Assembly (NCBI RefSeq): GCF_000009705.1
Contig: NC_003272.1
Span: forward strand, 450,001-482,000
Origin: Nostoc sp. PCC 7120 = FACHB-418
GTDB lineage: Bacteria > Cyanobacteriota > Cyanobacteriia > Cyanobacteriales > Nostocaceae
Reading direction: 5' to 3'
Length of the DNA: 32,000 nucleotides
Both the position numbers and the translations under genes were made by a program. Positions 4,086 through 31,724 of this stretch are shown here, one piece after another. The number at the start of each line of letters is the position of its first letter. The first letter of the stretch is position 1. The notes beneath the pieces were generated by a model. It did not search any database. It was not told where the DNA came from and saw nothing but the letters and a program-made list of their open reading frames with translations.

Positions 4086-4142
4086 GAGGATTTTAAACGC
4101 GGAGGGGCGCAGAGGTTAACGCGGAGGTTGCGCGGAGGGGTA

Positions 4143-5872: not shown

Positions 5873-5895
5873 TTCCTGACCTCCTGATAGTTAAT

Positions 5896-5921
5896 GGCAG
5901 TAATAGTTAACTATTACTGCC
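5896..5921. promoter_or_regulatory. Perfect 26-bp palindrome GGCAGTAATAGTTAACTATTACTGCC just upstream of the fhuC ribosome-binding site; candidate operator or intercistronic hairpin
   Basis: Read directly: arms 5896-5908 and 5909-5921 are exact reverse complements. The AT-rich core TAATAGTTAACTATTA has Fur-box-like composition. It lies 11 nt from the fhuC SD. Confidence 0.45.
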
Positions 5922-5999
5922 CTTGAAGATTGCTTTCTGTTGCCTATAACAACTATATAGCTAACCTAATTATGAGTATCTTTGTCAAGTGTTTTCCTC

Positions 6000-6013
6000 A
6001 ATATTGAGAATTA
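6000..6013. promoter_or_regulatory. AATATTGAGAATTA motif (overlaps the 12-bp palindrome CTCAATATTGAG, 5997-6008); candidate iron box shared with 16202-16216
   Basis: The same 14/15-nt string, differing by one T indel, recurs in the same orientation upstream of the biosynthesis operon. It resembles the Fur half-site TGATAATCATT. Confidence 0.35.
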
Positions 6014-7822: not shown

Positions 7823-7833
7823 ATTTTTGTTTG

Positions 7834-7976
7834 GGAATTTTCACGGGTTCTGGATAACCCCTCTCCAAACCTCTCCCCGACACGGAGAGAGGCTTTGAAT
7901 TTTCCCCCTTCCCTACTAGGGAAGGGGGTTAGGGGGTTAGGTTAAGCGTAGATTTTTCCACATAACGTGAAAAATC
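7834..7976 (-). mobile_element. Second, inverted copy of the double-hairpin MITE-like core, with different outer inverted repeats (GAATTTTCACG / CGTGAAAAATC)
   Basis: Its reverse complement aligns to 440-530 (ctaaccccc..ccttccct-NNNN-agggaagggg..caaagcctctctcc-NNNNNN-ggggagaggtttggagagggg). The loops differ while the stems are kept. It sits in the gap between the MFS stop and the synthetase start. Confidence 0.65.
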
Positions 7977-7995
7977 AGATTTAAGAGAAACAGAG

Positions 7996-10472: not shown

Positions 10473-11047
10473 GCTTTCCACCTCTGAAAAAATAGCTGGC
10501 GATCGCAAAACATCAACGCCCCAAATTTATCCGGTAATTCAATCTCTTTCTGAAACTCAAAACCACACTTTTCAAAAACATGAATCATCTTTTGATTGCG
10601 AATATCTGGTTCAGCAATAATCTTTTGAGTTGCTGTATTTTCAAATTGAAAAAATACCATTGCCCGTAACAGTGGCAAAGCATAACCTTTACCTAAAAAT
10701 TTGGTTTCCCCAATTAACAAATGAATACCTTGATCTGTCGCTTCTGCTGAATAATGTCGAGCCACAATATCATCAATTGTCCAGTATGACTCCCAATAAC
10801 TCATCGGTTCATCATCTAAACAACCAATATAAAGAGTTTGATGTTTATCTGCTAAAGTCCTTTGTAAATGCTCCCGCATCCGTTCCAAATCAAAGGCTAA
10901 ATTCCAAAAAGGAATTACATGAGGTTGATTCATCCAGTTATGAATCAGGTTTAAATCCTCCTCCAAAACCACCGGACGAAAAGCAATAGTTTTATTGATT
11001 GCAGCATCAAACCTTGCGTAACTGTAATTAATCATACTAACCGACAT
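10466..11047 (-). CDS. Siderophore N-acetyltransferase (IucB/RhbD-type GNAT)
   Basis: NWMNQPHVIPFWN.. is characteristic of the IucB/Acetyltransf_8 family. ATG at 11047 (MSVSMINY...) has GAGG upstream. The track ORF begins at an upstream TTG (11062). Confidence 0.85.
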   Translation of the reverse strand: MSVSMINYSYARFDAAINKTIAFRPVVLEEDLNLIHNWMNQPHVIPFWNLAFDLERMREHLQRTLADKHQTLYIGCLDDEPMSYWESYWTIDDIVARHYSAEATDQGIHLLIGETKFLGKGYALPLLRAMVFFQFENTATQKIIAEPDIRNQKMIHVFEKCGFEFQKEIELPDKFGALMFCDRQLFFQRWKAW

Positions 11048-11118
11048 AAACTTCAGCCTCAAATTCCTCTCATAAACTCTCTGCGTTACTTTGCGTAAAC
11101 CCCTGCGTCCCTCTGCGT

Positions 11119-12939: not shown

Positions 12940-13057
12940 GTCTAGTGTATTGTTTGGGTGAAAGTTATTTAATGTTGGGAGTGAGGAGAGTTGTTCGCTC
13001 TCCCTCTCTCCTATTTTTTGCTCACGCAGAGACGCGGAGAGAATGAGAGTGTCGAGC

Positions 13058-14674
13058 TTAGAGGCTTAACCCTTCTTTACTCTCTTGTGCGTGAAATAAA
13101 TACTTCTCACCTATCGTTGTGATAGAGTTGAGAACCTCTTGAATATCAGCGATCGCCGTCTGAGGATTCAGCAAGGTAAACTTTAGATAGGTAAGTTGAC
13201 CAATTTTGGTCTGTGCGATGACTGCGATACCTTGTTGCAGTAAACTCATGCGAATATGGCTATTGATTTGATTTGCCCAAGTTGTACTATCTATGTGTGC
13301 TGGTGTTTCACTAGGAAGATAGCGAAAAACAACAGCGTTAATGGTAGGATTGTTTGCCAACTCCAATGCAGGTTCAGCGTCAATTAAACTAGCGGTTTCC
13401 TTGGCTAGTTCAATTGTTGTATCAATCATCTGTGCAAATTGTTTCCTCCCCAGAGTGCGGAGAGAAACAAACAATTTGAGCGCGTCGAATCGCTTGGTGG
13501 TTTGTATGGACTTAGTTACTAAGTCGGGAATGCTGGCTACTTCGTTGGTTTCAGGGTTGAGATAATCAGCGTGTAGCTTTATTAAATCAAAGTTTTGACG
13601 CTGTTTAACTAAAAAAGCACCACAGCTAATTGGCTGGTAAAACAGTTTATGGAAATCGACTGTAATCGAGTCAGCCAAAGCAATACCATCTAGTTTATCT
13701 CGATGGCGATCGCTCATCACCAATGCACCACCAAAAGCCGCATCCACATGAAACCACAGGCCATATTTCTCAGCACAGGCGGCTAATTCTGGTAATTTGT
13801 CAATACTAGCAAAATCCGTAGTTCCCGCAGTTGCAACTAAAGCAATGGGTAATAAATTCTGTTGCTGCAATTCTTCTAACTTCTGTTCTACCGCCGCCGC
13901 ACAAAGCTGATAATCACTATCAGTCTCCACCGTTACCACAGCTTGCTGTCCCAAACCGAGTAAAGAAGCAGCTTGACTAATGGTGAAATGAGCAGCTTGA
14001 GAACAGAGAATCCGAAAACGTTGAGCTTCTGGTGGTAATCCTTGCTGCTGCACAGACCAGTTTAACTGATGACGTGCGTAAGCATCACGCGCTAGGAGCA
14101 ACCCCATAAAATTCGATTGCGTACCGCCACTGGTAAATATACCATCAGCATCAGCATCATAACCAAAACTTGCACACAGCCAATTTACCACCTGCTGTTC
14201 CAAAACAGTAGCAGCCGGACTTTGATCCCAAGAATCCAGAGATTGATTAGTCCCACTAATCAACACCTCAGCCGCCACAGCAGGTAATAACGGTGGACAA
14301 TGCAAATGAGCCATACAAGTAGGATGAGTTACCACCACCGAATGCTTGATGATATTCTCCCCCACCTCAGCCAAAACCTGACTCAAAGCCACCCCCTCAT
14401 CAGGACACACAGCGATATCTGCAATAGTCCTAGTTAAATCCTGGGGACTCCTACCACTATAGGGTTTTTCTTGAGTAGCAAAATAATCAATCAACACCTC
14501 TCCAGCAGCAGCGATCGCCTCCCGCAAACCCTCTCCTGCAACAAAAAACTCATCAAACTTCTTTCTTTGCGTGACGGACACTTTGCTCAAGTCGGGAGAC
14601 CCGCCCACGCAAGTGTCCTCCTTTGCGCCACCCTGCGGGAACGGCAAAGCCGAACTGCGCGAAATAATCACCAT
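13058..14674 (-). CDS. PLP-dependent group II decarboxylase (L-2,4-diaminobutyrate decarboxylase, RhbB-like)
   Basis: PLP-lysine motif SITVDFHKLFYQP and the group II decarboxylase fold. ATG at 14674 overlaps the aminotransferase stop (TGATG). The first ~35 codons are made of repeat DNA, so a GTG at 14581 is an alternative start. Confidence 0.85.
   Translation of the reverse strand: MVIISRSSALPFPQGGAKEDTCVGGSPDLSKVSVTQRKKFDEFFVAGEGLREAIAAAGEVLIDYFATQEKPYSGRSPQDLTRTIADIAVCPDEGVALSQVLAEVGENIIKHSVVVTHPTCMAHLHCPPLLPAVAAEVLISGTNQSLDSWDQSPAATVLEQQVVNWLCASFGYDADADGIFTSGGTQSNFMGLLLARDAYARHQLNWSVQQQGLPPEAQRFRILCSQAAHFTISQAASLLGLGQQAVVTVETDSDYQLCAAAVEQKLEELQQQNLLPIALVATAGTTDFASIDKLPELAACAEKYGLWFHVDAAFGGALVMSDRHRDKLDGIALADSITVDFHKLFYQPISCGAFLVKQRQNFDLIKLHADYLNPETNEVASIPDLVTKSIQTTKRFDALKLFVSLRTLGRKQFAQMIDTTIELAKETASLIDAEPALELANNPTINAVVFRYLPSETPAHIDSTTWANQINSHIRMSLLQQGIAVIAQTKIGQLTYLKFTLLNPQTAIADIQEVLNSITTIGEKYLFHAQESKEGLSL
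14576..14618 (-). repeat. Small dispersed hairpin repeat (8-bp stem GGACACTT/AAGTGTCC, 27-nt conserved loop) inside the 5' end of the decarboxylase ORF
   Basis: The loop reverse complement GCGTGGGCGGGTCTCCCGACTTGAGCA matches the loops at 23102-23130 and 25521-25549. A second repeat type (TTCCCGCAGGGT, also at 2118-2129) adjoins it at about 14622-14660. Confidence 0.75.
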
Positions 14675-16155
14675 CAAGAAACCTGCGAAAGAACCGATAA
14701 AACCTGCTTCTCCGCCGCCTGTACCGCCGACGAAAAAATCTCACTAATACTATCAATCTGCGCTGGAGTCACAATCAAAGGCGGCAAAAAGCGCACCACG
14801 CTACCAAATCTACCCCCTAATTCCACAATCAAACCCCGACGCAAACACTCAGCCTGAATACAACTAGCCAACTGCGGATGTACAGGATACTTCCCACGCC
14901 GATCAGCCGATGCTTGGGGATTAATAATCTCCACACCAACCATCAAACCGCGTCCCCGCACTTCTCCAATACAGTAAGTTTCCCCTTGAATTTGGTGCAG
15001 ATGTTTCAACAAGCGATCGCCCATCGCTGCCGCGTGTTCAGTCAAGGAATTTTCTAAAATATACTGTAGTGTCGCTGTTCCGGCTGCCATTGCCATTTGA
15101 TTACCCCGGAATGTCCCTGCGTGTGCGCCTGGACTCCATTTATCTAGTGCCTTGTTGTACAAAACCACCGATAAAGGTAAACTCCCACCAATAGCTTTGG
15201 AGAGTAACAACACATCTGGCACAATCCCTGAATGCTCAAAAGCGTAGAGTTTACCAGTCCGTCCTAAGCCTGTTTGAATCTCATCAACAATGAGGGGAAT
15301 ATGGCGATCGCGGGTAATCCGGCGCATCTCTCGCAACCAATCATCAGGTGCAGGAATCACCCCACCTTCCCCTTGCACAACTTCCAAAATCATCGCCGCC
15401 GGTGTGACAATCCCACTTTCAGGATCATCCAAAATCGATTCTATATAACGGCTGCTGGTAATTTGTCCAGCTTCTCCACCCAAACCAAAGGGACAACGAT
15501 AATGATAGGGATAAGGCAAAAAGTGGACATCTGGCATTAACCCTGTCACCGCTTGTTTAGGATTGAGATTGCCTGTTAAACTCAATGCTCCATGAGTCAT
15601 CCCATGATAACCACCATGAAATGACAACACACTGCGGTGGCCAGTAGCAGTTTTCACCAGTTTAATCGCCGCCTCTACAGCATCTGCTCCCGAAGGCCCA
15701 CAAAACTGAATCTTGGCATTCTGAGCAAATTCCGCAGGTAAACTAGCAAAAATTTCTTCGACAAACTGATCTTTAACTGGTGTAGTCAAATCTAGAGTAT
15801 GCAAAGGTAAACCCGTATCTAGCACCCGGCGCATCGCTTCTATTGCTACTGGGTGATTGTGTCCTAATGCTAAAGTACCTGCACCAGCCAAACAATCAAT
15901 ATATACATTGCCATCAGCATCTTTGAGATAAATACCCTGAGCCTCACTAATGGCAATCCGAATCCGCCGGGGATAGCTTCTAGCGTTGGACTCTCGTGCT
16001 TGCTGACGCTCTAAATAGTGGCTTGATGCCGCACCAGGTACAGAACGCACGCGATTACTGGGAAAATCAGACTCTACACTACTCTGCGATGGACATATCT
16101 GCGGCAGCACGAAAGAGTGGCCTTCAGAGTGTACGCCATTGTGATTGAGTTGCAT
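14674..16155 (-). CDS. Class III aminotransferase (diaminobutyrate--2-oxoglutarate transaminase, RhbA/EctB-like); first gene of the biosynthesis operon
   Basis: 493 aa with DEIQTGLGRTGKLYAFEH and the PLP-Lys region LLLSKAIGG. The ~60-aa N-terminal extension is typical of DABA transaminases in siderophore clusters. Confidence 0.9.
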   Translation of the reverse strand: MQLNHNGVHSEGHSFVLPQICPSQSSVESDFPSNRVRSVPGAASSHYLERQQARESNARSYPRRIRIAISEAQGIYLKDADGNVYIDCLAGAGTLALGHNHPVAIEAMRRVLDTGLPLHTLDLTTPVKDQFVEEIFASLPAEFAQNAKIQFCGPSGADAVEAAIKLVKTATGHRSVLSFHGGYHGMTHGALSLTGNLNPKQAVTGLMPDVHFLPYPYHYRCPFGLGGEAGQITSSRYIESILDDPESGIVTPAAMILEVVQGEGGVIPAPDDWLREMRRITRDRHIPLIVDEIQTGLGRTGKLYAFEHSGIVPDVLLLSKAIGGSLPLSVVLYNKALDKWSPGAHAGTFRGNQMAMAAGTATLQYILENSLTEHAAAMGDRLLKHLHQIQGETYCIGEVRGRGLMVGVEIINPQASADRRGKYPVHPQLASCIQAECLRRGLIVELGGRFGSVVRFLPPLIVTPAQIDSISEIFSSAVQAAEKQVLSVLSQVS

Positions 16156-16201
16156 TGTGAAAATCCTCTAGGCGTTGAGCCTTAATGGTAAGTGGGAACA
16201 G

Positions 16202-16216
16202 AATATTTGAGAATTA
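16202..16216. promoter_or_regulatory. AATATTTGAGAATTA motif ~50-60 nt upstream of the biosynthesis operon start; candidate FurA/iron box
   Basis: Near-identical to 6000-6013 and in the same orientation relative to minus-strand genes. It aligns 11/19 to the classical Fur box GATAATGATAATCATTATC. Confidence 0.35.
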
Positions 16217-16392
16217 CTTGCATTAATTTCCTACCTGCTAAACATCCTACATGAAGATTAATGAAAAAGTCTACTAATAACTTGACAAAAAGATAAGAAA
16301 TTTTTGATTCATTAATTCTTCTTATCTAAAGCTAGTTGCATCATCATACTAATGAAACTGATACCGAAAACACGCTTATAAAGGTATGTGTG

Positions 16393-16425
16393 CGTTATTA
16401 ATGATAATGTCAGCAAGAATAATTC
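16393..16425. promoter_or_regulatory. Fur-box-like AT-rich segment (TTATTAATGATAATGTCAGCAAGAATAATT) in the 469-bp divergent promoter region
   Basis: It contains TAATGATAAT, identical to the core of the classical Fur box. It lies between the divergent siderophore biosynthesis and receptor genes. No binding data are available here. Confidence 0.35.
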
Positions 16426-16678
16426 CTAACAGTAAATAGACAAAAAGCAAAATATCTAGAGACTATGTAGGAAGAGCTTTATCGGCTTTTATCATTGGTT
16501 TTTTCGTAGTTAATTCATACCTTTTTGAGATACTTCTTCAAGAAAATACTTGTATAAGTACTGAAATAGATATATTTTAATAAAATCAAAAACTATTGCT
16601 AATGCAAGTCAATAATAATAGGCGATGGATTGTGTCACTAGCCATAATCCAGTCGCAACTTTTAGGTGCGAAGTGAAA

Positions 16679-19228
16679 ATGAAACCCGGAAAAATCCTTT
16701 TTCTTCTCTTGCTCACAGGTTCTGTTTGGTCATTAATCAGCCATCCTGGCAAAACTCAGGAAGCCCCATCCCCAACACAACTAAATACACAATCACCAGC
16801 ACCTAACGCTCAGGAATTGACACAAGTAACTGGCGTGAGAGTTGTTCCTACAGTTCAAGGTCTAGAGGTGATATTAGATAGTACAGCCGCCGAAAAATTG
16901 CAGGTATCAACGCAAAATCAAGGCAATAGTTTGATTGCTGATATCACTAACGCTCAACTCAACTTGTCTGAGGGAAATACATTCAGCCAAAATAATCCAG
17001 CCACAGGTGTAACTAATGTGACTGTGGTTAATCACAATGACAATACAATCCGGGTGACTGTGACGGGAGAGAAAAGCCTTCCCAAATTTGAGCTATTCGA
17101 TAGTGATACAGGTTTGATTTTGGCATTCACGGCTACTGAAGTAGCTCAAGATTCCCCCGCAGAAGTAGATGAACCAATTGAACTGGTGGTGACAGCAACG
17201 CGTACCGAAACACCTATACAAAATGTTCCGCGTTCCATCACTGTCATTGACCGCGAACAAATCGCCGCACAAGCCAGCACTTCCCGCAACCTCATAGAAA
17301 TTCTGGGGAAAACAGTTCCCGGTTTAGCACCGCCAGCCCAAGGCGCTAGTAATTTTGGTCTAACTCTCAGGGGCAGGAATCCCCAAGTGTTGATTGATGG
17401 GGTTCCCCAATCGACAACCAGAAATGCGTCGCGGGATTTGCGAACAATTGACGCGGCGGCGATTGAACGAATTGAAGTAGTACGCGGCCCCAGTGCAATT
17501 TATGGTGATGGTGCAACAGGGGGTGTGATTAATATCATCACCAGGCGACCGACTGAAGAAAAATTAACTTCCCGGACAGAAGTTGGTGTAAGTGCAGCTT
17601 TAGGTAATTTGGAAGGGGACAGTTTTAGCACTAACCTACAGCATTTTATCTCCGCGAAACAAGGGAACTTTGATTTTACCTTTAACTTTGCAGTGGCTAA
17701 AAATGGCGGATTCTTTGATGCTCAAGGCGATCGCATTCCCTCTGATCCTAATGCCCAAGGTGGCTTTGCTGATGCTTCTAGTATTAACTTGTTTGGTAAG
17801 TTTGGTATTGATATAGACGCAAATCAACGTCTACAACTCACCTTTAATCGCTTCGACGAAAAACAAGATACAGATATCGCTAGTGACCCCAGGGTCAATA
17901 CTATCCCTGGAAGACAAAAGGCTCGTGCTTTAGAAGGGTTGAGTTTGGATGAAAGGCCAGGGAATGAGAACACATTCATCAACCTGCAATACACCCATGA
18001 CGATTTATTCAATAGCAAACTACAAGCCCAGTTATATTACCGGGATTACCTGACACGCTTCTTTCCCTTTGATGGTCGTAGCTTTGCTAGTTTGGGTAAC
18101 GAAATCTTTCAATCGCGGGTGGAGTCAGAAAAGTATGGCGGACGCTTGCAGATAGAAACACCTTTATTTAATCAAGGTGCGGCCAAACTACTTTGGGGTG
18201 TAGATTACTCCCAGGAAGATACCTCCCAACCTGTCTCTGTATTCGACCAAGCTGCCTTTGTCGCCAGTGGGGGGTTAGCATTTCGTAAAACAGGCGATCG
18301 CTCTTGGACTCCTCCTTTAGAATTAAGGAGTCTGGGATTATTCGCTCAGTTGAATTGGGAAATAAGCGATCGCTTCGTCTTCAATGGTGGTGTACGCTAC
18401 GAAAACGCTGATGTAAGTGTCAATGATTTCCGCACCTTAGCCAATCCCAACGTCACTATTGGCGGCGGTGATTTGAACTTTAACGCCACACTGTTTAATG
18501 TAGGAGCAGTATACGCCCTCAATCCCCAACTGAGTGTATTTGCTAACTATGCTCAAGGTTTCTCACTATCAGATATTGGTTTAGCACTCCGCAACGCCCC
18601 ACCAGGATTTTCTGTAGAATCTCTCAATCCCGAACCGCAAAAAGTAGATAACTATGAAATTGGCATTCGCGGACAATGGGATACTGTACAAGCATCACTC
18701 TCAGCTTTTTATAACGAGTCCGACTTGGGTACAACTTTCACCGCGCCGGGGACTGTCATCCGCGCCCCAGAGAGAATTTATGGTCTAGAAGCAGCCATTG
18801 ACGCACAACCTAGTTCTACATGGCAAGTTGGCGGGACATTCACTCTCATTGGTGGTGAAATTGACAGCAATAATGATGGCGATTACGAATCATTAGATGG
18901 GTTTAGGATTCCCCCGTTGAAACTTACAGCCTATGTAGAAAATGAGACTTTACCCGGTTGGCGAAATCGTCTACAAGCTTTGTACTCTGGTAATAGAGAA
19001 GTCTTTGGTAATAACAATACGGCCTTTGGTAGGAGACCTGTAGAAAGTTATTTAACAGTAGACTACATCAGTAGTATTAAACTCGGTGCCGGAACATTAC
19101 AACTGGGATTAGAAAACCTATTTAATAGTCAATATTTCCCCGTAGTTTCCCAATTGCAAGCAAATGATAGCGCCTATGCTGCTGCTAGAGGAAGGACTTT
19201 GAGTATTAAGTATTCTTTTGATTGGTAA
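16679..19228 (+). CDS. schT: TonB-dependent hydroxamate-siderophore outer-membrane receptor with an N-terminal AMIN-like domain
   Basis: Signal peptide from ATG at 16679 (MKPGKILFLLLLTGSVWSLIS); the track ORF starts at 16625. An AMIN-like segment follows (VTGVRVVPTVQGLEVILDS...TIRVTVTG). Then come a plug domain (IELVVTATRTETPIQNVPRSITVI, RIEVVRGPSAIYG) and a 22-strand barrel ending ...LSIKYSFDW. The symbol rests on remembered similarity to Anabaena alr0397. Confidence 0.85.
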   Translation: MKPGKILFLLLLTGSVWSLISHPGKTQEAPSPTQLNTQSPAPNAQELTQVTGVRVVPTVQGLEVILDSTAAEKLQVSTQNQGNSLIADITNAQLNLSEGNTFSQNNPATGVTNVTVVNHNDNTIRVTVTGEKSLPKFELFDSDTGLILAFTATEVAQDSPAEVDEPIELVVTATRTETPIQNVPRSITVIDREQIAAQASTSRNLIEILGKTVPGLAPPAQGASNFGLTLRGRNPQVLIDGVPQSTTRNASRDLRTIDAAAIERIEVVRGPSAIYGDGATGGVINIITRRPTEEKLTSRTEVGVSAALGNLEGDSFSTNLQHFISAKQGNFDFTFNFAVAKNGGFFDAQGDRIPSDPNAQGGFADASSINLFGKFGIDIDANQRLQLTFNRFDEKQDTDIASDPRVNTIPGRQKARALEGLSLDERPGNENTFINLQYTHDDLFNSKLQAQLYYRDYLTRFFPFDGRSFASLGNEIFQSRVESEKYGGRLQIETPLFNQGAAKLLWGVDYSQEDTSQPVSVFDQAAFVASGGLAFRKTGDRSWTPPLELRSLGLFAQLNWEISDRFVFNGGVRYENADVSVNDFRTLANPNVTIGGGDLNFNATLFNVGAVYALNPQLSVFANYAQGFSLSDIGLALRNAPPGFSVESLNPEPQKVDNYEIGIRGQWDTVQASLSAFYNESDLGTTFTAPGTVIRAPERIYGLEAAIDAQPSSTWQVGGTFTLIGGEIDSNNDGDYESLDGFRIPPLKLTAYVENETLPGWRNRLQALYSGNREVFGNNNTAFGRRPVESYLTVDYISSIKLGAGTLQLGLENLFNSQYFPVVSQLQANDSAYAAARGRTLSIKYSFDW

Positions 19229-22355: not shown

Positions 22356-22685
22356 CTACGCCCTACCGCAGGCGATCGCAATCATCGCTTCCAGTGTATC
22401 CTGAGCAAGAGGCGTTAAAATAAACACCTCTTGCACTGTTTTACCCTGTCGGGCAATAATTTTATAGCCACCACGAATAGGTACAGATATACGCAGTTGC
22501 ATTTTGGGGGAGTGGCCTTTAACTCTACCAATAACCCCTGGTGTGATGGTTTGAATGCCATCTTGTTGACACAGGCGTTCTAAAATAGGTATCAGGCCGG
22601 GAATGTGGGTAGAATGATTCCAAACTAATCTACCATCCTTTTTACGAGAGACAGGCTTTTGGTGGTCGGAGGAGGATTTACCCAT
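22356..22685 (-). CDS. Conserved small cyanobacterial hypothetical protein immediately downstream of clpS (possibly DUF2103-like)
   Basis: ATG at 22685 (MGKSSSDHQKPVSRKKDGRLVWNHSTHIPGL...) lies 5 nt after the clpS stop. The longer track ORF (to 22778) would overlap clpS by 88 nt. The family assignment is from memory only. Confidence 0.5.
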   Translation of the reverse strand: MGKSSSDHQKPVSRKKDGRLVWNHSTHIPGLIPILERLCQQDGIQTITPGVIGRVKGHSPKMQLRISVPIRGGYKIIARQGKTVQEVFILTPLAQDTLEAMIAIACGRA

Positions 22686-22690
22686 GATAG

Positions 22691-23017
22691 TTAAGCCGCC
22701 TCTAGGGGAGCCATTGTTAGCCCAGCCCGGCGCAATTGTTGGTGATACAATTCTGCGGGTTCTTGCGGCCCTACCCAAACGATCGCTTGTCCCTCATAAT
22801 GTACTTGATTAGTCAAATCCCAAGCTAAATCGCCAGTCATACCCGGAATATACTTCACCAAACACTCCGCAACGTGTTGAAAAGTATTAAAATCATCATT
22901 TAACACAATCACCTTGTAATTGGGATAAGTCTTGCGGACAGTTTGATTAGACCGTTCAGGAGTTACAGTTGGTGCTGTACTCATGGCGTAAACATCTATC
23001 GAAAGTTTTGTAACCAT
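22691..23017 (-). CDS. clpS: ATP-dependent Clp protease adaptor ClpS
   Basis: YKVIVLNDDFNTFQHVAECLVKYIPGMT...QVHYEGQAIVWVGPQEPAELYHQQL is the canonical ClpS core. An alternative start is ATG at 22984 (MSTAPTV...). Confidence 0.9.
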   Translation of the reverse strand: MVTKLSIDVYAMSTAPTVTPERSNQTVRKTYPNYKVIVLNDDFNTFQHVAECLVKYIPGMTGDLAWDLTNQVHYEGQAIVWVGPQEPAELYHQQLRRAGLTMAPLEAA

Positions 23018-23247: not shown

Positions 23248-25278
23248 TTACCGCCAATTCTCCCAATTTTGATTAAAAATGGAAGTATCTGGGAAAGCTG
23301 TGGGATTGCCGTTTTTTTCTAATAAACGTTTGAGGGCTTGCAGTTGAGGTTCTGATTTGGGTAAATCGTCTACTAATTGGTAAGGTGCAACTTCATTTTT
23401 TAAAGAGAAAGCGGCTACAGTTCCCGCCGCCGCACCAGCAGACCATTCAAAGGAATGTACTCGATAAGCTGCGGCTGCAATGTGGCTAGTGGCAATACTT
23501 TTACCCCCGACTATCAAATTATCGATTTTTTGAGGAATCATGGCTCTTAAGGCAATTTGGAAGGGATAGGCTTGTCCTGCACCCCGTCGTTCCCCCGGAC
23601 GTTCTCTATTTCCGGGTGCTTCTGGTGGACTTTTCTCCATACAGGGATGAAAATCAATGGCGTAGTGACCAATACCGACAGCATCAGGGAAAATGGTGGA
23701 ACGAGTCCGCCGCATCGCTTTATCGGGGGAAACTTGACCAGAAATCACTGAAGTTGCCTCTAACCCTGCTAATGTCGCTCTCAACTGGCGATACATATCG
23801 GCTGGCAAGGTTTTGCGGTAGTATTCATCGTTATAGTTACGGCGAGAAATATCAACTTCCCAAATAGTGAAACCTGTGGGTTGTCCCCAACTGGGGCGGC
23901 CGATGATGCGCCTTCCTTCCCGCATATAAGGATATTTCGATAAGCCATGTGCTGTCCCCATAGGGGAGTCTAACCCGGCTAAAAAGCGATTATTAGTTTG
24001 GGGACGCTTCACACCTTGACCTAATTGGGAATCTGTGGTTCCCGCTACTAACCAGTAATAGTAAGAAAAGGCTTTTTCTTCAGCTTTGCGGAGGCTTTCG
24101 GTTCGCAGTCCCCCCATCCAACCACCTGGTTTTAACTGTCCTGTTCCTTGTAGCTGTTGGCGGGTGTAAACTAGGTTATCTTTGGCAGTACCGGGGCGAT
24201 AGTCGTTACCCCAAGTCCAGTTCTGCATGGAGATATCCCCTGGTGTGGGGGCAGAAAATCTCACGCCGTTGAAATTTACAGGTTCTCCCTTCGTTGGACT
24301 CCAAATGCGGCGGTAGGTAAAAACTAAGCCAAAGTCAGCTAATCTTGGTAATTCGTAGCTGAAATAGGGCGAATATTGTAAATAATATGGCGGCATTTTC
24401 TGGGGTTGTGCTTCCTTGGTAGCCTCCATTGCAAAGGTGTAAGTAAAGCCTTGGGTACAATAGGGGTCATTTTTGGCGCTGGAGGAAGAAGGTTCCAGAA
24501 AGGAACGGGCATCAATACCTAAGCGGTAAGGGACATCAGCCAGGGCGATAATTTCCCCGGTTTCACTGGCATCTACGATGTACCATTTAGGACTATTTTC
24601 CTTAGTTTGTTGGGGAACTAGGCGAATAATATTTTTGGTAAACCGGGATGAGTTGCTATAACGATAGGCATCGTCAATGGTTTGTGATAGGGTAAAGGTG
24701 TTGAGAGGTGGTGAGCCTTTGACTGGTTGATGTTGAATAGCGATCGCGCTATTAATTAATTTACCCTGAGAAATTTCTAAATCTTTAATTACTGTGTTGG
24801 GGAACCACTCTAACTTACCCTTACCCCGCCTTTCTGCATCTTTGAGCAATTCCACCATCACCGTATGGGCATCACGGGGCAAAAAACAGGAATCACTCAC
24901 CCAGCAGTCTCCGGGATTGAGCTTACCGTATTTTTTCTGAATGCGATTACGCAATTCCAAATAGCCGCGAGAATAGAATTGACGTTGGCTTTGGGTAGGT
25001 CGTTCATCTAAAGCCGAGGTTCCTTGAGAGGAAATCTGTCCACCCAACCAATCAGTAATTTCTGTTAGGCAAACTCTTCTACCAGCCAATAAACCTTCAT
25101 AAGCTGTAGCAACCCCAGAAAGTCCGCCACCCACCACTAAAATGTCACAGTTGACAGTTTTATCTGGGTTTCTCGGTGGAGCAGCGACAATTGCAGAATT
25201 AGGTATCAGGTAGCCAGAGATTAAGCTGAGACTGATGAGTGATGTCTGGAGACAGGCTACTTTATGTCTGCGCTTCAT
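23248..25278 (-). CDS. Secreted FAD-dependent oxidoreductase (FAD_oxidored/PF12831-like)
   Basis: ATG at 25278 gives MKRRHKVACLQTSLISLSLISGYLIPNSAIVAAPP, a Sec-type signal. The dinucleotide motif is DILVVGGGLSGVATAYEGLLAGRRVCLTE..WLGGQ. Total length is about 676 aa. Confidence 0.7.
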   Translation of the reverse strand: MKRRHKVACLQTSLISLSLISGYLIPNSAIVAAPPRNPDKTVNCDILVVGGGLSGVATAYEGLLAGRRVCLTEITDWLGGQISSQGTSALDERPTQSQRQFYSRGYLELRNRIQKKYGKLNPGDCWVSDSCFLPRDAHTVMVELLKDAERRGKGKLEWFPNTVIKDLEISQGKLINSAIAIQHQPVKGSPPLNTFTLSQTIDDAYRYSNSSRFTKNIIRLVPQQTKENSPKWYIVDASETGEIIALADVPYRLGIDARSFLEPSSSSAKNDPYCTQGFTYTFAMEATKEAQPQKMPPYYLQYSPYFSYELPRLADFGLVFTYRRIWSPTKGEPVNFNGVRFSAPTPGDISMQNWTWGNDYRPGTAKDNLVYTRQQLQGTGQLKPGGWMGGLRTESLRKAEEKAFSYYYWLVAGTTDSQLGQGVKRPQTNNRFLAGLDSPMGTAHGLSKYPYMREGRRIIGRPSWGQPTGFTIWEVDISRRNYNDEYYRKTLPADMYRQLRATLAGLEATSVISGQVSPDKAMRRTRSTIFPDAVGIGHYAIDFHPCMEKSPPEAPGNRERPGERRGAGQAYPFQIALRAMIPQKIDNLIVGGKSIATSHIAAAAYRVHSFEWSAGAAAGTVAAFSLKNEVAPYQLVDDLPKSEPQLQALKRLLEKNGNPTAFPDTSIFNQNWENWR

Positions 25279-25514
25279 GATATGAGGACTCTTTCTACTC
25301 TTGTGCGAACTTGTAGACGTTACCATCTTCTAAAGGTTCTCTACAAGACGGGGTAGGGAGCAGAGAGCAGGGGGAGAAAGATTTTCAGCCTTCTTTACTT
25401 TCATTCACGCAGTTTGGTTTTATTACACTGACTTAAGTAGAACGACCTGAAAAAACCAAATATGTTAAATAATATACAGAACTTATACTTAATTCTTGGA
25501 ATACACGTAGGGGA

Positions 25515-25599
25515 GCCACTGCGTTGGACGGGTTTCCCGGCTTGGAGCAAGTGGCGTTGGGCATTGCCCACCGGCTCATGGTTTTGGTGGGCAATGCCC
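25515..25599 (+). repeat. Composite repeat: a small dispersed hairpin (GCCACT/AGTGGC stem, 25515-25555) plus a 15-bp perfect inverted repeat TGGGCATTGCCCACC / GGTGGGCAATGCCCA (25557-25599)
   Basis: Read directly. It lies about 40 nt downstream of the PEP-CTERM gene stop and could also act as its terminator. Confidence 0.75.
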
Positions 25600-25639
25600 A
25601 CTCTACAGATTTAGTTTGATTGTGACATTTGCATACACC

Positions 25640-26902
25640 CTATCTAATTTCTAGTACCTTTTTAAACTTTGACAATAGCAAACAGACAAAACCAACCACT
25701 ATTAATGACAATGAATAAGTCGGTTCCGGTACAGACTGAGGATTTGGTACAGGCTCATAAGGCGACTGATTTATAGGAATACTACTGAGTAAATTTACAA
25801 GCTGCTCAATATTACTGGACAAACTATTATTATCTGTACCATTATCTCTCGCAAGAATAAGTCGGTTAAATGTTTGGGTTTCTTCTATCTCCAAATTGCC
25901 TGTTAACCCAATGAAATCTTGACCTATTCTTCCCACCACAGAGTTAATTATATTATCAATTCCATCTCTAGTCCCTTGGACAAAAAAATCTGAATTTTCA
26001 AAATTATTACCAAAACCAATATTTGTATTATCGCTATCTATTAGCCAGTTACCATTACCAACAACTGTGTTATTATTGGTAAAAATCCAGTTGCCATTAC
26101 CAAGAATTGTATTGTTAGTACCGAAGTCCCAGTTACCATTACCAATGGTTGTATTATCAGTACCGAAATACCAGTTACCATTACCTAAAGTTGCGTTATT
26201 ATTTCCACTATCTAAATACCAGTTACCATTACCAATTGTTGTATTATCACTGCCATAATGCCAGTTACCATTACCTAAAGTTGCGTTATTATTTCCACTA
26301 TCTAAATACCAGTTACCATTGCCAATGGTTCTATTATCACTACCAAAGTGCCAATTACCATTACCTAAAGTTGCGTTATTACTGCCATCATCCCAGTACC
26401 AGTTGCCATTACCAATGGTAGTGTTACTACTCCCGAAAAGCCAGTTACCGTTACCAACAGTTGTATTATTAGTGTTAAAATTCCAGTTGCCGTTACCGAT
26501 AGTGGCGTTGTCACTACCAAAATCAGAATTAAAATTACCAATAGTTGCGTTACTATTACCAAAGTTTCTATTACCATTACCAATAGGTGAATCGCCAATT
26601 ACAAAAGGATTACTACCCCCTGTAAATGGATTATTAGATTCATCACCGAGAATTAATTGCAAGCGGTCAAAAATTAATTTTTGAAGCTCAATTCCGCCAT
26701 CACCAGCAAAGGGATTGATACCATTTCCGGGAAGGTTGCTATTACTATTTTGTGTATTTTGGCTGATAATTCTGAATAGGTATTGAAAGGGTGATGTAGT
26801 GGGATATTCCCTTGGAGTGGCTTCGCCAACGCTCGGAGATAATTGTTGAGATGAATTATCACTACTAGAGCTATCAACTAAGTTAAAAATAGAATCTTCC
26901 AT
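25640..26902 (-). CDS. GNGNW-repeat (14/16-residue, beta-solenoid-like) protein with a C-terminal PEP-CTERM sorting signal and no N-terminal signal peptide
   Basis: 420 aa. Residues ~107-307 form about 14 repeats of x-G-N-G-N-W-x-(F/L)-(G/D)-x-x-N-x-T, with 11 exact GNGNW. The C-terminus is VPEP-TYSLSLIVVGFVCLLLS-KFKK (PEP motif, TM helix, basic tail). The N-terminus is polar (MEDSIFNLVDSSSSDNSSQQ). Confidence 0.75.
   Translation of the reverse strand: MEDSIFNLVDSSSSDNSSQQLSPSVGEATPREYPTTSPFQYLFRIISQNTQNSNSNLPGNGINPFAGDGGIELQKLIFDRLQLILGDESNNPFTGGSNPFVIGDSPIGNGNRNFGNSNATIGNFNSDFGSDNATIGNGNWNFNTNNTTVGNGNWLFGSSNTTIGNGNWYWDDGSNNATLGNGNWHFGSDNRTIGNGNWYLDSGNNNATLGNGNWHYGSDNTTIGNGNWYLDSGNNNATLGNGNWYFGTDNTTIGNGNWDFGTNNTILGNGNWIFTNNNTVVGNGNWLIDSDNTNIGFGNNFENSDFFVQGTRDGIDNIINSVVGRIGQDFIGLTGNLEIEETQTFNRLILARDNGTDNNSLSSNIEQLVNLLSSIPINQSPYEPVPNPQSVPEPTYSLSLIVVGFVCLLLSKFKKVLEIR
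25982..26584. repeat. In-frame tandem repeat array (42/48-bp units; 90-bp super-repeat near-identical at 26171-26230 and 26261-26320)
   Basis: The string ccagttaccattacctaaagttgcgttattatttccactatctaaataccagttaccatt occurs twice exactly, 90 bp apart. Flanking units are more diverged. Confidence 0.85.
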
Positions 26903-27035: not shown

Positions 27036-27803
27036 CTAGGCAAAGGGATTGCTACCGCCCGCGAAAGGATTTTCTCCACCTGCGAAAGGATTGCTACCGC
27101 CTGCAAAAGGATTGCTACCGCCCGCAAAAGGATTGCTACCGCCCGCAAAGGGATTGCTACCACCTGCAAAAGGATTGCTACCGCCTGCAAAAGGATTGCT
27201 ACCGCCTGCAAAAGGATTGCTACCGCCTGCGAAAGGATTGCTACCGCCTGCGAAAGGATTTTCTCCACCGCCTGCGAAGGGATTGCTACCGCCTGCAAAG
27301 GGATTACCACCACCGGTTAAGGGATTGCTACCGCCTGCGAAGGGATTTTCACCACCGCCTGCGAAAGGATTGCTACCGCCTGCAAAGGGATTGCTACCGC
27401 CTGCGAAAGGATTGCTACCGCCTGTTAAGGGGTCGCTACCACCTGCAAAAGGATTGCTACCGCCTGCAAAGGGATTACCACCACCGGTTAAGGGGTCACT
27501 GTTATTACCCTGATTGATAGCAGTCCAAGGGTTAACGCCACCAGTCAATGGACTAGCGGGAGCATTGGGATTGCCAAAGTTAGAGAAAGGATTACCGCCG
27601 GCTGGTGCGCCACCGCCAGTTGGTGCGCCACTACCACCGAATGGGTTGTTACCGCTACCACCAACAGCTCTACCAAAAGCCTGGATGATTGTTTCTTCGG
27701 TGACACCTGGGATATTTAATAAAGCACCAAAAGGTGATTGTCGAAGTAAACTACCGAGTTCGTTAGTAGAGGAATTACCACCACTATTATTTGAATCAGG
27801 CAT
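27036..27803 (-). CDS. Low-complexity protein with 22 tandem GGSNPFA-type heptads running to the C-terminus
   Basis: ATG at 27803 with GGAGG (27814-27818) 10 nt upstream. The ~100-aa non-repeat N-terminal region (MPDSNNSGGNSSTNELGSLLRQSPFGALLNIPGVTEETIIQAFGRAVGG...) has no signal peptide or TM segment. It is followed by heptads GG(S/G/E)(N/D)P(F/L)(A/T). Confidence 0.7.
   Translation of the reverse strand: MPDSNNSGGNSSTNELGSLLRQSPFGALLNIPGVTEETIIQAFGRAVGGSGNNPFGGSGAPTGGGAPAGGNPFSNFGNPNAPASPLTGGVNPWTAINQGNNSDPLTGGGNPFAGGSNPFAGGSDPLTGGSNPFAGGSNPFAGGSNPFAGGGENPFAGGSNPLTGGGNPFAGGSNPFAGGGENPFAGGSNPFAGGSNPFAGGSNPFAGGSNPFAGGSNPFAGGSNPFAGGSNPFAGGSNPFAGGENPFAGGSNPFA
27039..27497. repeat. 21-bp tandem repeat array (about 22 units, some 24 bp), in frame with the CDS
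   Basis: Units such as ggattgctaccgcctgcaaaa are repeated nearly perfectly. Four of the six reading frames stay open across the array (see the ORF track). Confidence 0.9.
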
Positions 27804-28300: not shown

Positions 28301-29365
28301 CTAAATAACACTAGCTAAAACAGGTTGAGGCCAGCGTCCAACTACTTTACCAATGACTGACATTTCTTGAGCTAATCGGTCAAATCTCTCGAAAGTTAAA
28401 GATTGGGGACCATCAGATAAAGCTCTGGCAGGATTGGGATGAACTTCTATCATTAAAGCATCTGTACCGGCTGCGATCGCAGCTGCTGCCATTGGTGGCA
28501 CATATTCAGATTTACCTGTACCATGACTAGGGTCTATCATAATGGGTAAATGAGTGAGCGATCGCAATACGGGAATCACAGATAAATCCAAGGTATTCCG
28601 CGCATATTTACTATCAAAAGTTCTAATTCCCCGTTCACACAAAATCACGTTAGAATTGCCCGAAGCCATGATATATTCAGCAGCCATTAACCACTCGTCA
28701 ATAGTTGCAGCCATCCCCCGCTTGAGTAGCACTGGTTTATCTTGAGCGCCGACTTTTTTCAACAAGGCGAAGTTCTGCATATTCCGCGCACCGACTTGAA
28801 TCACATCGGCTACCCTTGCCACGGCTGCTAAGTCGGCAGTATCCATAACTTCAGTGATGATACCTAAACCTGTCGCCTCACGCGCCGCCGCTAACAAACC
28901 TAATGCACTTTCGCCATGTCCTTGGAAAGCATAGGGAGAAGTCCGGGGTTTATAGGCTCCACCTCTGAGAAACTTAGCGCCAGCTGCTTTTACACACTTG
29001 GCTGTCTCCACAATCATTTCCTCATTCTCCACGGAACAAGGCCCAGCCACTACAACTATTGGATGATGTTCACCAAAGTAAACACGCTCGTTTGGTGTAT
29101 TGACAATTACCTCGCTGGCTTCTCCATAACGAAATTCTCGACTCACCCGCTTGAAAGGTTTCTGCACTCGCATGACTTGTTGAATCCAAGGGCTGAACTC
29201 TTGAATCTGCAATGTGTCGATAGTGGCGGTGTCACCGATGATTCCCAGAATCACTTTATGTTTGCCGATGCTCTTTTCTACTTTGACTTCCCAAACTTCA
29301 CTTAGACCTTCGCTGATGCGAGTAATTTCTTCAGCAGGTGTACCATTTTTAAGTATGACAATCAT
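28301..29365 (-). CDS. aroG: 3-deoxy-7-phosphoheptulonate (DAHP) synthase, type I-beta, with an N-terminal ferredoxin-like regulatory domain
   Basis: ATG at 29365 (MIVILKNGTPAEEI...). Catalytic core motifs are VVAGPCSVENEE, GGAYKPRTSPYAFQGHG and IDPSHGTG. Track ORF 29407 adds 14 aa that overlap trpD. Confidence 0.85.
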   Translation of the reverse strand: MIVILKNGTPAEEITRISEGLSEVWEVKVEKSIGKHKVILGIIGDTATIDTLQIQEFSPWIQQVMRVQKPFKRVSREFRYGEASEVIVNTPNERVYFGEHHPIVVVAGPCSVENEEMIVETAKCVKAAGAKFLRGGAYKPRTSPYAFQGHGESALGLLAAAREATGLGIITEVMDTADLAAVARVADVIQVGARNMQNFALLKKVGAQDKPVLLKRGMAATIDEWLMAAEYIMASGNSNVILCERGIRTFDSKYARNTLDLSVIPVLRSLTHLPIMIDPSHGTGKSEYVPPMAAAAIAAGTDALMIEVHPNPARALSDGPQSLTFERFDRLAQEMSVIGKVVGRWPQPVLASVI

Positions 29366-29387
29366 TGTTGTTACCTTGTATATGTGT

Positions 29388-30482
29388 TTAGCGTAGAAAT
29401 TCAGCAAGTTGTTCTAACTTTGTCCAAGCCGCGCCACTTTGCAGCACTTCTCTGGCAATAGCTATACCTTTGACACAACCTTCTACAATATCTGTCGTGG
29501 TAATCGCCTCACCAACTTGCAATGCTAAGGCTGTATTTAAAGCGACTACATCTTGTTGGGCTTGAGTCCCTTTACCTTGGAGGATTGCCTTCAAAATTTC
29601 GGCATTTTCCGCCACATCTCCACCGCGTAATACTTCAGTTGGGGCGTGATTTAAGCCTAGTTCTTGAGGATTAAGTGCAAGACAACTGACTTTTCCATCT
29701 TGGAGTATGGCTAAATCGGTCACATCTGCTAGTCCAGCCTCATCTAAGCGTTCCCTTCCGTGGAGAGCGATCGCTTTTCGACATCCCAAATGAGATAATG
29801 CTAGGGCGATCTCTTCGATTAATAAAGGGTCATTTACACCAATAATCTGTCCAGTGGGACGCAGGGGATTAACTAAAGGCCCCAACAAATTAAAAATAGT
29901 CCGCACCTTCAGAGTTTTGCGTAAAGTCGCCACTGTCTTCAGTGCTGGATGCCAACCAGGGGCGAATAAAAAGGTAATTCCCACCTCACTTACTGCGGCT
30001 TGTACCTTATCTGCATTGGCATTGAGATTAATTCCCAAAGCTTCCAACACATCAGCCGAACCAGTCTTGCTAGAAGCAGAACGATTCCCATGTTTGGCAA
30101 CTTTTACCCCGGCTGCCGCAGCCACAAAAGCCACAGCAGTGGAGATATTGAAAGTAGATGCACCATCACCACCAGTTCCGCAAGTATCAATAAGGGGAGT
30201 GGGGAATGGGGAATGAGGAGGGGAGTAAGAGGACTGGGATTGCAGAACCCTGGCCATGCCCACTAACTCTTCAGATGATACGCCTTTAGCTTGGATTGCG
30301 GCTAAGATTGCGCCTGAGAGGACTGGGGGAATGGTATCTGTGAGCCAGCCTTGCATTAAATCTGTCGCTTGGGCAACTGTTAAGGATTGGCGTTTGAGCA
30401 ATTGTTGGAGTATGGCTGACCAGTCGTTGGAGTCGGGAGTAACTGAGATGTTATCAAGTGGAGTTTGAGTTACAGCTACCAT
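29388..30482 (-). CDS. trpD: Anthranilate phosphoribosyltransferase
   Basis: [39 protein letters not shown] and the other canonical TrpD motifs. Confidence 0.92.
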
Positions 30483-30494
30483 ATTAGTTAATGG

Positions 30495-31724
30495 TTAATA
30501 ATTAAGGACTTTGGCGACGGTTTGCACATCTTTATCACCTCTGCCAGAACAGTTGATGACAATGCGAGGGCTACCATTGAGTTGGGGACAGAGAGTTTCT
30601 AGGTAAGCGATCGCATGAGATGTTTCTAATGCGGGTATAATCCCTTCTAGTCGGGAGAGTTGTTGAAATCCATCTAAAGCTTGTTTATCAGTCACGCTGT
30701 AATATTCAGCGCGTCTTATATCTTTCAAATAACTATGCTCAGGCCCTACACCCGGATAGTCTAGTCCAGCACTAATTGAGTGAGCTTCAATGACTTGACC
30801 ATCCTCATCTTGCAATAAGTAACTCATTGCACCATGCAAAACTCCAACTCTACCTAGTGTCAAGGTGGCAGCGTGTTTATCTGTGTCTACACCTTCGCCG
30901 GCGGCTTCCACACCAATCAGACGGATGGAAGGCTCATCTATAAACTCGTGGAACAAGCCAATGGCATTGGAACCACCACCCACACAAGCCAGTAGAATAT
31001 CTGGGAGTCCTCCCCATTTTTCTTGACACTGGACGCGGGTTTCTTTACCGATAATGGCGTGGAAGTCGCGGACAATCATCGGGTAGGGATGGGGGCCAGC
31101 CACAGAACCAAGGATGTAATGTGTGGTTTCTACATTTGTTACCCAATCTCGAATTGCTTCTGATGTTGCATCTTTGAGGGTTCCTGTACCCGCTTCCACT
31201 GGGCGAACTTCCGCCCCCATCAACTTCATGCGGAAAACATTTAGGGCTTGTCGTTCCATATCGTGGATGCCCATGTAAATCACACAATCCAACCCAAAAC
31301 GCGCACATACAGTTGCAGTTGCTACACCGTGTTGACCTGCCCCTGTTTCGGCAATGACACGCTGTTTACCTATGCGTTTGGCGAGTAATACTTGAGCCAA
31401 AGCGTTATTAATTTTGTGTGCGCCTGTATGATTTAAATCTTCACGCTTTAAGTAAATTTGCGCACCAGTTCCGTCTGGTCTGGCGTAATATTCTGTTAGG
31501 CGTTCAGCAAAGTACAATGGGCTAGGTCTGCCTACATAATCACGCAGTAAGTTTTGTAATTCGGTTTGATAGCTGGCATCGTCACGGTATTTTTGATAAG
31601 CGGTTTCTAATTCGCCTAAAGCTGGCATCAGGGTTTCAGGTACATACTTACCGCCGAATTTACCGAATCTGCCTAGTGCATCTGGGCGTGCAAGTTGGTT
31701 TTTAATTTCTGGAGTGCTTACCAC
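30495..31724 (-). CDS. trpB: Tryptophan synthase beta subunit
   Basis: [15 protein letters not shown] (PLP lysine), GGGSNAIG and the overall TrpB pattern. There is a 12-nt gap to trpD. Confidence 0.95.

Follow-up and report, generated by a model that had tools for sequence, protein, structure and literature searches.

All0406 of Nostoc sp. PCC 7120, a leaderless GNGNW-repeat protein with a PEP-CTERM-type tail encoded in the scytonemin gene cluster

How can a protein carry the C-terminal signature of exosortase substrates and lack the N-terminal signal peptide through which such substrates are thought to reach the exosortase? This question is raised by all0406, a gene annotated in its source as 'unknown protein' in Nostoc (Anabaena) sp. 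PCC 7120. We analysed a 32,000-nucleotide (nt) stretch of this genome (contig NC_003272.1, positions 450,001 to 482,000), hereafter the window, in the numbering of which all coordinates are given. The All0406 family comprises PEP-CTERM proteins with a new repeat and, unusually, without a signal peptide, and all0406, together with its upstream paralogue all0407, forms a gene pair that belongs to the scy/ebo/trp cluster of heterocystous and related cyanobacteria. The retention of the tail without a signal peptide in about 80 species, beside ScyD, ScyE and ScyF, all three of which have both, offers a clean test of the Sec-then-exosortase model: either there is a second entry route to the exosortase, or PEP-CTERM-like tails double as cytoplasmic tail anchors.

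25640..26902, minus strand: all0406 coding sequence from the open reading frame (ORF) list, encoding a leaderless GNGNW-repeat protein of 420 amino acids (aa) with a PEP-CTERM-type tail

Identity and distribution of the family

The ClpS gene in the window is all0404 (PMC8147232), and therefore the flavin adenine dinucleotide (FAD)-dependent oxidoreductase at 23248..25326 corresponds to all0405 and the two repeat genes to all0406 and all0407. The all0405 tag also fits the listing of All0405 as a signal-peptide-bearing exoprotein (PMC10957091). A protein identical to All0406 is encoded in the assembly GCA_014697155.1, and the A. subtropica orthologue is 86% identical to it. The all0406 transcript has been measured by microarray and is down by 1.16 log2 in a sigC mutant.

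Exhaustive HMMER searches across 1.84 billion representative sequences recovered only 103 relatives of All0406 at E ≤ 1e-3. Homologues are mostly named 'hypothetical protein' in their sources, a few are labelled 'PEP-CTERM sorting domain-containing protein' by NCBI, and the UniRef label of one of them reads 'PPE family protein'. No Pfam or NCBIfam model fits All0406 or 24 of its homologues, except for PEP-CTERM in two or three of the homologues, at E ≤ 0.01 and without comparison to the model cut-off. The initial annotation of this DNA, made from the sequence without database searches, allowed that the repeat might belong to a well-annotated family, but neither collection has a model that covers it. 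Scanning of 185,579 species genomes yielded 193 confirmed loci; locus counts given below refer to the best 80 of these 193, all of which are from Nostocales, with the exception of one metagenome-assembled genome labelled Chroococcales.

A conserved N-terminus without a signal peptide

26591..26902, minus strand: N-terminal polar region, aa 1-104, with NPF motifs and with amphipathic helices predicted at aa 40-48 and aa 68-85

The N-terminus of All0406 is polar and acidic, and the nearest in-frame stop is found 24 codons upstream of the start, a stretch that contains no ATG, GTG or TTG codon. The Kyte-Doolittle maximum (12-residue window) within the first 70 aa is 0.44, compared to 3.03 in the C-terminal helix. 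Essentially the same contrast is seen across 75 full-length homologues, in which the maximum for the first 70 aa averages 0.68 (highest, 1.30) versus 2.73 for the tail, and no hydrophobic N-terminal segment that could correspond to a signal peptide was detected in All0406 or in 80 orthologues. In all 80 loci, the orthologue starts with M-E-[A/E]-S-A-[V/I]-N-[P/S], and orthologues share a continuation of this start, -[I/L]-N-G-G. The upstream in-frame stop is usually located within 8 codons of this start; in a few loci, the distance is 11-35 codons, and it is larger for two truncated gene calls. Given the common start and the nearby upstream stops in the 80 orthologues, the leaderless N-terminus is, judging from the sequences, a family trait rather than an accident of annotation. 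What had originally been noted for All0406, namely, the lack of both a signal peptide and an in-frame upstream start, thus extends to its orthologues.

A profile of the N-terminal LLxQSPFGxL motif retrieved only two short proteins and did not reveal what might read this motif. A double-glycine leader was also considered for 'MEASAVNPINGG', but was dropped as a candidate, given that the segment comprises only 12 residues, has Pro at position -5 and is absent from All0406. Apart from this family, Npun_F4801, the PEP-CTERM protein with the strongest dependence on CrtB in the Nostoc punctiforme exoproteome (PMC12188702, supplementary Fig. S3), starts, as printed, with MSRADAASMTFSVTG... and has no evident signal peptide; it may be leaderless as well, or its start may have been called wrongly.

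The PEP-CTERM-type tail

25643..25732, minus strand: PEP-CTERM-type tail, aa 391-420, consisting of VPEP, a 17-residue hydrophobic helix and KFKK

The C-terminal sequence VPEP-TYSLSLIVVGFVCLLLS-KFKK spans aa 391-415 of the 420 and has the layout of a PEP-CTERM signal. The outcome of profile comparisons depends on the fragment submitted: with TIGR02595 (cut-off 16), the isolated 35-aa tail scores 16.4 bits and a 57-aa fragment 15.0, and the whole protein yields no match, whereas Pfam PF07589 gives 13.5 versus a cut-off of 20.7. V391, P392 and E393 are conserved in at least 90% of 77 homologues, and the entire arrangement of VPE[P/S], membrane helix and KFKK is conserved in the orthologues. Among 81 orthologous tails, 46 carry PEP, 17 carry PES and 16 other variants of the motif, with only two tails lacking a recognizable motif. 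The PES variant also occurs in PEP-CTERM exoproteins of N. punctiforme, such as Npun_F0296, the level of which is diminished in a crtB mutant (PMC12188702). Thus, although the initial annotation overstated the case by calling the signal 'textbook', given the borderline profile score, the anatomy of the tail and its conservation among orthologues are clear.

The exosortase that such a tail calls for, anticipated in the initial annotation, is documented in the literature: PCC 7120 has a single exosortase, all0497, which is a cyanoexosortase B, along with 42 PEP-CTERM proteins (PMC1569441, Table 1; PMC10957091). The all0497 gene is located outside the window. The composition of All0406 (18.6% N, 13.1% G, only 14 K and R residues taken together and one Cys) fits the PEP-CTERM cohort described earlier, in which about 97% of the members had a signal peptide after correction of start sites and the model assumes export via Sec (PMC1569441).

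The all0407-all0406 pair in the scytonemin gene cluster

27036..27803, minus strand: all0407, upstream paralogue and first gene of the pair; 255 aa, leaderless and without a tail
27040-27476, minus strand: heptad array of all0407, about 20 GGSNPFA units with a 21-bp period (20.5 copies)
28301..31724, minus strand: aroG (3-deoxy-D-arabino-heptulosonate 7-phosphate synthase), trpD and trpB, assigned with Pfam, directly upstream of the all0407/all0406 pair

Both All0406 and All0407 carry NPF motifs and an N-terminal SPF-containing motif. The pairing is widely conserved: in about 70 of the 80 loci, a gene of the All0407 type is located directly upstream of one of the All0406 type. No conserved neighbouring gene for a transporter, an exosortase or a glycosyltransferase was detected in the 80 loci.

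The aroG, trpD and trpB genes that precede the pair are redundant aromatic amino-acid genes from the 3' part of the scytonemin cluster. In an extended locus from an identical genome, the gene order is eboD-eboE-eboF-trpE-trpC-ADH-trpA-trpB-trpD-aroG-all0407-all0406, which matches the 3' half of the Anabaena scytonemin cluster (Soule et al., 2009; PMC2726228). The trpB-trpD-aroG block is located directly upstream in 17 of the 80 Nostocales loci. A different arrangement is found in Synechocystis sp. PCC 7509 and in a JGI metagenome contig, where the pair follows scyA-B-C-D-E-F and precedes eboA-F and trpE. In Scytonema sp. UIC 10036 and the long contig L089, three or four family members come after aroG or trpD. 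Hence, in several lineages, the genes are found in the cluster in the same orientation, at two different positions. Persistence in the cluster at differing positions is good evidence of functional linkage. Overall, the pair belongs to the scy/ebo/trp cluster of heterocystous and related cyanobacteria. Nevertheless, in the scytonemin literature that we examined, including the description of the Anabaena cluster (PMC2726228), we found no mention of an all0407/all0406-like pair, which perhaps was overlooked because it is absent from the scytonemin cluster of the model strain N. punctiforme.

The locus of PCC 7509 places the family side by side with known PEP-CTERM proteins. Five consecutive genes of this strain, namely, scyD, scyE, scyF, a gene for a 191-aa protein and P0181, encode products in which PVPEP[T/S]S..LG is followed by a membrane helix and, at the end, a cluster of K/R residues. 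Ordinary signal peptides are present in ScyD, ScyE and ScyF of PCC 7509; the two family members start with MADNTTTGSNTQDLNELLRQSPFG... and MATNESSISNFFVGNG..., respectively. The PCC 7509 orthologue of All0407 carries a PVPEP tail, unlike All0407 itself. Clusters of the Scytonema and L089 type encode runs of three or four consecutive leaderless low-complexity proteins after aroG or trpD (L093, 7292-11674; L089, 3522-11650); all of these are tail-less, and one contains (GGFGGGQ)n repeats.

The repeat domain and its predicted fold

25985..26590, minus strand: repeat domain, aa 105-306, with 14 units, each 14 or 16 residues long, and a predicted β-solenoid fold
26129..26471, minus strand: array of the 90-bp (30-aa) super-repeat (Tandem Repeats Finder: 3.8 copies, 85% matches, score 476)
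25778..25984, minus strand: C-terminal helical module, aa 307-375, IDNLINSLVGRIGQDF..LTG......QTFNRLIL, conserved in the family alignment

The centre of All0406 consists of GNGNW units with successive spacings of 14, 14, 14, 14, 16, 14, 16, 14, 16, 14, 14, 14 and 14 residues, in which pairs of 14 and 16 residues make up a 30-aa super-repeat present in three near-identical copies. Tandem Repeats Finder additionally reports a 42-bp period in all0406, with 13.3 copies. The unit map and this program together confirm the initial description of about 14 units, of 14 or 16 residues, which give a 30-aa super-repeat. In the family at large, the spacing is 14 residues in 375 cases and 16 in 118 cases (77 members). 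The logo derived from 618 units of these 77 members reads N89-[A/T]-T66-[I/L/V]-G100-N99-G100-N100-W89-x-F65-[G/D]-x-x; G-N-G-N is practically invariant, and the most variable position is that between Trp and Phe. This pattern suggests that Trp and Phe lie on the same face of the strand, which probably forms the core; the Trp would then point inward, as judged from conservation.

The number of units varies among family members. Orthologues have 6-10 GNGNW units each, and a 390-aa variant from the same 90% cluster as All0406 (P0002) lacks exactly one 30-aa super-repeat; either the repeat copy number is unstable or repeats have been collapsed in assemblies. In a different context, one predicted protein, P0111 (contig L087, 349-1035), combines an N-terminal region similar to the phage T4 gp19 tail-tube protein (PF06841) with an in-frame fusion to GNGNW repeats. 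We regard the link to contractile injection systems suggested by this fusion as unlikely, because the 2.8-kb metagenome contig has 1.95x coverage and no supporting context, and is probably an assembly chimera.

Modelling with AlphaFold2 from an alignment of 77 sequences yielded a pair of strands for each repeat unit of 14 or 16 residues, at predicted local distance difference test (pLDDT) values of 92-94 at aa 110-160 and 74-87 for most other repeats; the N-terminal 100 residues and the stretch between the repeats and the tail were modelled with low confidence. From the single sequence, the model was poor (pLDDT 44.6), and Foldseek searches with it returned only insignificant β-helix matches. 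With the alignment-based model, nothing significant was retrieved either (best E 0.24). The centre of All0406 is thus predicted to fold as a two-sheet β-solenoid, in which each repeat forms a coil of 14 or 16 residues and Asn, Ala/Thr-Thr-Ile, Gly-Asn-Gly-Asn and Trp-x-Phe are conserved in each coil. The β-solenoid proposed in the initial annotation, for which structure prediction had been suggested as a check, is the outcome of this modelling, rather than disorder. By contrast, the suggestion that the N-x-T tripeptides are glycosylation sequons found no support: All0406 contains 17 N-x-S/T sequons, compared to 12.7 +/- 3.0 in shuffled sequence, so that their number stems from the composition and the repeat and not from selection for sequons. 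Between the solenoid and the tail, the helical module is modelled as three helices (304-334, 339-351 and 359-373) with low to medium confidence.

A possible role in the scytonemin system and the rival explanations

The location in the cluster, the presence of a paired paralogue and the leaderless state across the family together change the most likely function of All0406 relative to the initial annotation. We tentatively favour, while retaining considerable doubt, the explanation that All0406 is an exosortase-sorted accessory protein of the envelope or sheath which serves the scytonemin system and is exported by a non-classical route. Under this scenario, All0406 would reach the outer face of the cytoplasmic membrane without an N-terminal Sec signal peptide and would be anchored by its C-terminal helix, with KFKK on the cytoplasmic side; cyanoexosortase B (All0497) would then cut at VPEP and sort the protein to the envelope or sheath, where, as a rigid solenoid, it might assist the deposition of scytonemin, either structurally or by binding, and hold the pigment or sheath polysaccharide. 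The conserved N-terminus and its SPF motif are candidate recognition elements for export. For cyanoexosortase B to read the tail, the rest of All0406 would have to be outside the cytoplasmic membrane, and this requires an export route that does not involve a Sec signal peptide. Scytonemin production in N. punctiforme depends on CrtB, for which the working model proposes ScyD, ScyE and ScyF as substrates (PMC12188702). The pair suggests an overlooked part of the pathway, open steps of which are transport, final assembly and retention of the pigment in the sheath.

In a bolder version, which we rate as rather unlikely, the All0406/All0407 family would define a signal-peptide-free entry to the exosortase pathway, with the N-terminus (ME[A/E]SAVNP.., LLxQSPFGxL) replacing the Sec signal, and would supply the missing accessories that carry scytonemin or retain it in the sheath. 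If so, this could help explain why no pigment was obtained from Escherichia coli expressing scy genes of N. punctiforme, either scyA-E or the full set of 18, with ebo located elsewhere.

Several observations weigh against the explanation that we favour. We know of no mechanism by which a 390-aa domain that lacks a signal peptide is carried across a membrane. The tail scores close to the profile cut-off, and many family members, including All0407 and the Scytonema, Rivularia and Calothrix types, have neither a tail nor any hydrophobic segment; with so many tail-less members, any export must be independent of the tail, and these proteins may simply be cytoplasmic. Neither all0406 nor all0407 was found in the Anabaena exoproteome tables (PMC10957091), and All0406 is unseen in two exoproteome data sets, although trypsin would release peptides of 79 and 121 aa from its repeats, which qualifies this negative result. 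In a clade of N. punctiforme-like strains, the pair is located beside unrelated genes, away from the scy genes. PCC 7120 does not produce scytonemin, and its cluster has been called relic information (PMC2726228); thus, all0406 may be idle in this strain, though intact and transcribed. Finally, we infer the binding of pigment or polysaccharide purely from the genomic context and the aromatic-rich solenoid.

The strongest rival holds that All0406 is a tail-anchored protein that faces the cytoplasm, and we regard it as a serious, if doubtful, possibility. The helix would insert post-translationally, as in bacterial tail-anchored proteins, and leave the solenoid on the cytoplasmic side of the plasma or thylakoid membrane, where it might, for instance, scaffold ScyA-C and the Ebo machinery, with the tail-less paralogues as soluble cytoplasmic partners. 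Such a topology requires no new export route and accommodates the universal leaderless state of the family, the many paralogues without any membrane segment and the failure to see All0406 in the two exoproteome data sets; moreover, cytoplasmic-side membrane proteins have been predicted in the cluster (Soule et al., 2009; PMC2726228). However, a plain anchor would not need the conserved V-P-E-[P/S] that precedes the helix, as it does in the ScyD, ScyE and ScyF tails. Furthermore, the basic residues after the helix favour a C-terminus that is inside, which would put the body of All0406 outside, and its composition, which is rich in N, G, S and T, poor in K and R and includes one Cys, resembles that typically seen in exported PEP-CTERM proteins.

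The lack of scytonemin in Anabaena PCC 7120 and the characterization of its cluster as 'relic information' (PMC2726228) could also indicate that all0406 and all0407 are leftovers of a non-productive cluster, the odd features of which are not under selection in this strain. The unstable repeat number, with a 390-aa variant beside the 420-aa form, is in line with such decay, but the ORF is intact, its transcript is detected, the orthologue from A. subtropica is 86% identical and the architecture is conserved in 80 species. Furthermore, the combination of a leaderless N-terminus with a tail is an ancestral feature of the family and did not arise by decay in PCC 7120. We consider this explanation improbable. 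Far less credible is the function put forward in the initial annotation, an ice-binding protein or adhesin unrelated to scytonemin, with ice or a surface bound by the solenoid through a flat Thr/Asn face. The resemblance amounts to weak phmmer matches with the Lolium ice-binding β-roll (3ULT, E 0.0034) and a YadA-like head (3s6l, E 0.27), a Foldseek probability of 0.77 for 3s6l_B in a list that also includes 3ult, and 23.2 bits for All0407 against the grass antifreeze β-roll family PF21300, for which the cut-off is 30. These scores are under the family thresholds, the Foldseek E values are 0.24 or worse, and the similarity stems from the 7- and 14-residue periodicity of sequences rich in N, G, S and T. 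In addition, All0406 has no autotransporter anchor, and its genomic context repeatedly involves scytonemin, not cold or adhesion genes; the claim is therefore unsupported, reflecting only compositional likeness. Least probable of all, and scarcely to be expected, is a precursor of a ribosomal product, with the N-terminal motif as a leader and the Trp units as modified or excised cores close to dedicated tryptophan genes. The combination of conserved N-terminal motifs without a Sec signal, many near-identical Trp units and a natural-product cluster brings such a precursor to mind, but a folded solenoid is confidently predicted, no protease, cyclase or recognition-element genes are found beside the pair, and precursors of this kind do not feature a C-terminal membrane anchor.

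Other features of the window

25558..25600, strand not assigned: perfect 15-nt inverted repeat with a 13-nt loop (TGGGCATTGCCCACC / GGTGGGCAATGCCCA), 40 nt 3' of the all0406 stop
22356-23017, minus strand: overlapping ORFs of a DUF2103 protein and ClpS
23248-25326, minus strand: All0405, FAD-dependent oxidoreductase with a signal peptide
2145-19228: siderophore biosynthesis and uptake genes

Each arm of the inverted repeat is itself nearly palindromic and no T-run follows, so that the element is a possible candidate for a 3' end element. All0405 occupies row 5 in the supplementary table of the Anabaena exoproteome (PMC10957091); its gene adjoins all0406 only in PCC 7120-like genomes, with no synteny elsewhere. 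Further along, the ORFs called mechanically for the DUF2103 protein and for ClpS have about 90 bases in common, an overlap that is removed in the public gene call by a later start of the DUF2103 gene (109 aa). The region 2145-19228 encodes an fhuBDC-type transporter, schizokinen-type siderophore synthesis independent of nonribosomal peptide synthetases (NIS) and a TonB-dependent receptor with an AMIN domain. The siderophore genes include two IucA/IucC genes, along with those for a monooxygenase, an acetyltransferase, a decarboxylase, an aminotransferase and an exporter of the major facilitator superfamily.

Comparison with known systems

The predicted coil of All0406 has counterparts in several β-rolls. 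The Foldseek matches are ranked as left-handed β-helix enzymes, YadA-like heads and 3ULT, with E ≥ 0.24 throughout. The left-handed parallel β-roll of the YadA-like head (Hep_Hag) shares with All0406 the 14-residue coil and the ..N-x-[small]-x-[I/V]-G.. signature, and its representative 3s6l_B is matched with the aforementioned probability of 0.77, a TM-score of 0.40 on the target and E 0.7. However, YadA heads lack the invariant G-N-G-N-W turn and the Trp-x-Phe strand of All0406, which in turn has no neck, stalk or autotransporter anchor and no Pfam match to Hep_Hag at E ≤ 1. Similarly, the ice-binding β-roll of Lolium perenne (3ULT; PF21300) resembles All0406 in having two 7-residue half-repeats per coil of 14-15 residues and Asn/Thr ladders, and is the best match to All0406 among the Protein Data Bank sequences (phmmer, E 0.0034). 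All0406 differs in that its coils carry Trp and Phe, its host is a mesophilic cyanobacterium and its context is pigment biosynthesis; PF21300 itself yields no match to All0406. Although All0406 resembles these 14-residue β-rolls in period and signature, its G-N-G-N-W turn and Trp-x-Phe strand are peculiar to it.

Proteins without signal peptides also offer parallels. Bacterial tail-anchored proteins, such as ElaB and YqjD of E. coli, similarly have no signal peptide and a single C-terminal helix with a few basic residues after it, but, unlike All0406, they are small and helical, with no conserved PEP motif before the helix and no link to an exosortase. Mycobacterial PPE-MPTR proteins, which carry N-x-G-x-G-N-x-G repeats and are secreted without a Sec signal, share with All0406 the short Asn/Gly-rich tandem repeats. 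However, no PPE domain and no match to Pfam Pentapeptide_2 were found in All0406, and we know of no type VII secretion in cyanobacteria.

The closest parallels are the PEP-CTERM substrates ScyD, ScyE and ScyF, which share with All0406 the gene cluster, the V-P-E-P motif, helix and basic cluster, the N/G/S/T-rich and K/R-poor composition and the lack of homology to characterized proteins outside the tail. There are also differences: ScyD, ScyE and ScyF are β-propellers equipped with a signal peptide, whereas All0406 is a tandem-repeat solenoid, the orthologues of which that we examined have no signal peptide and many of the paralogues of which are also tail-less.

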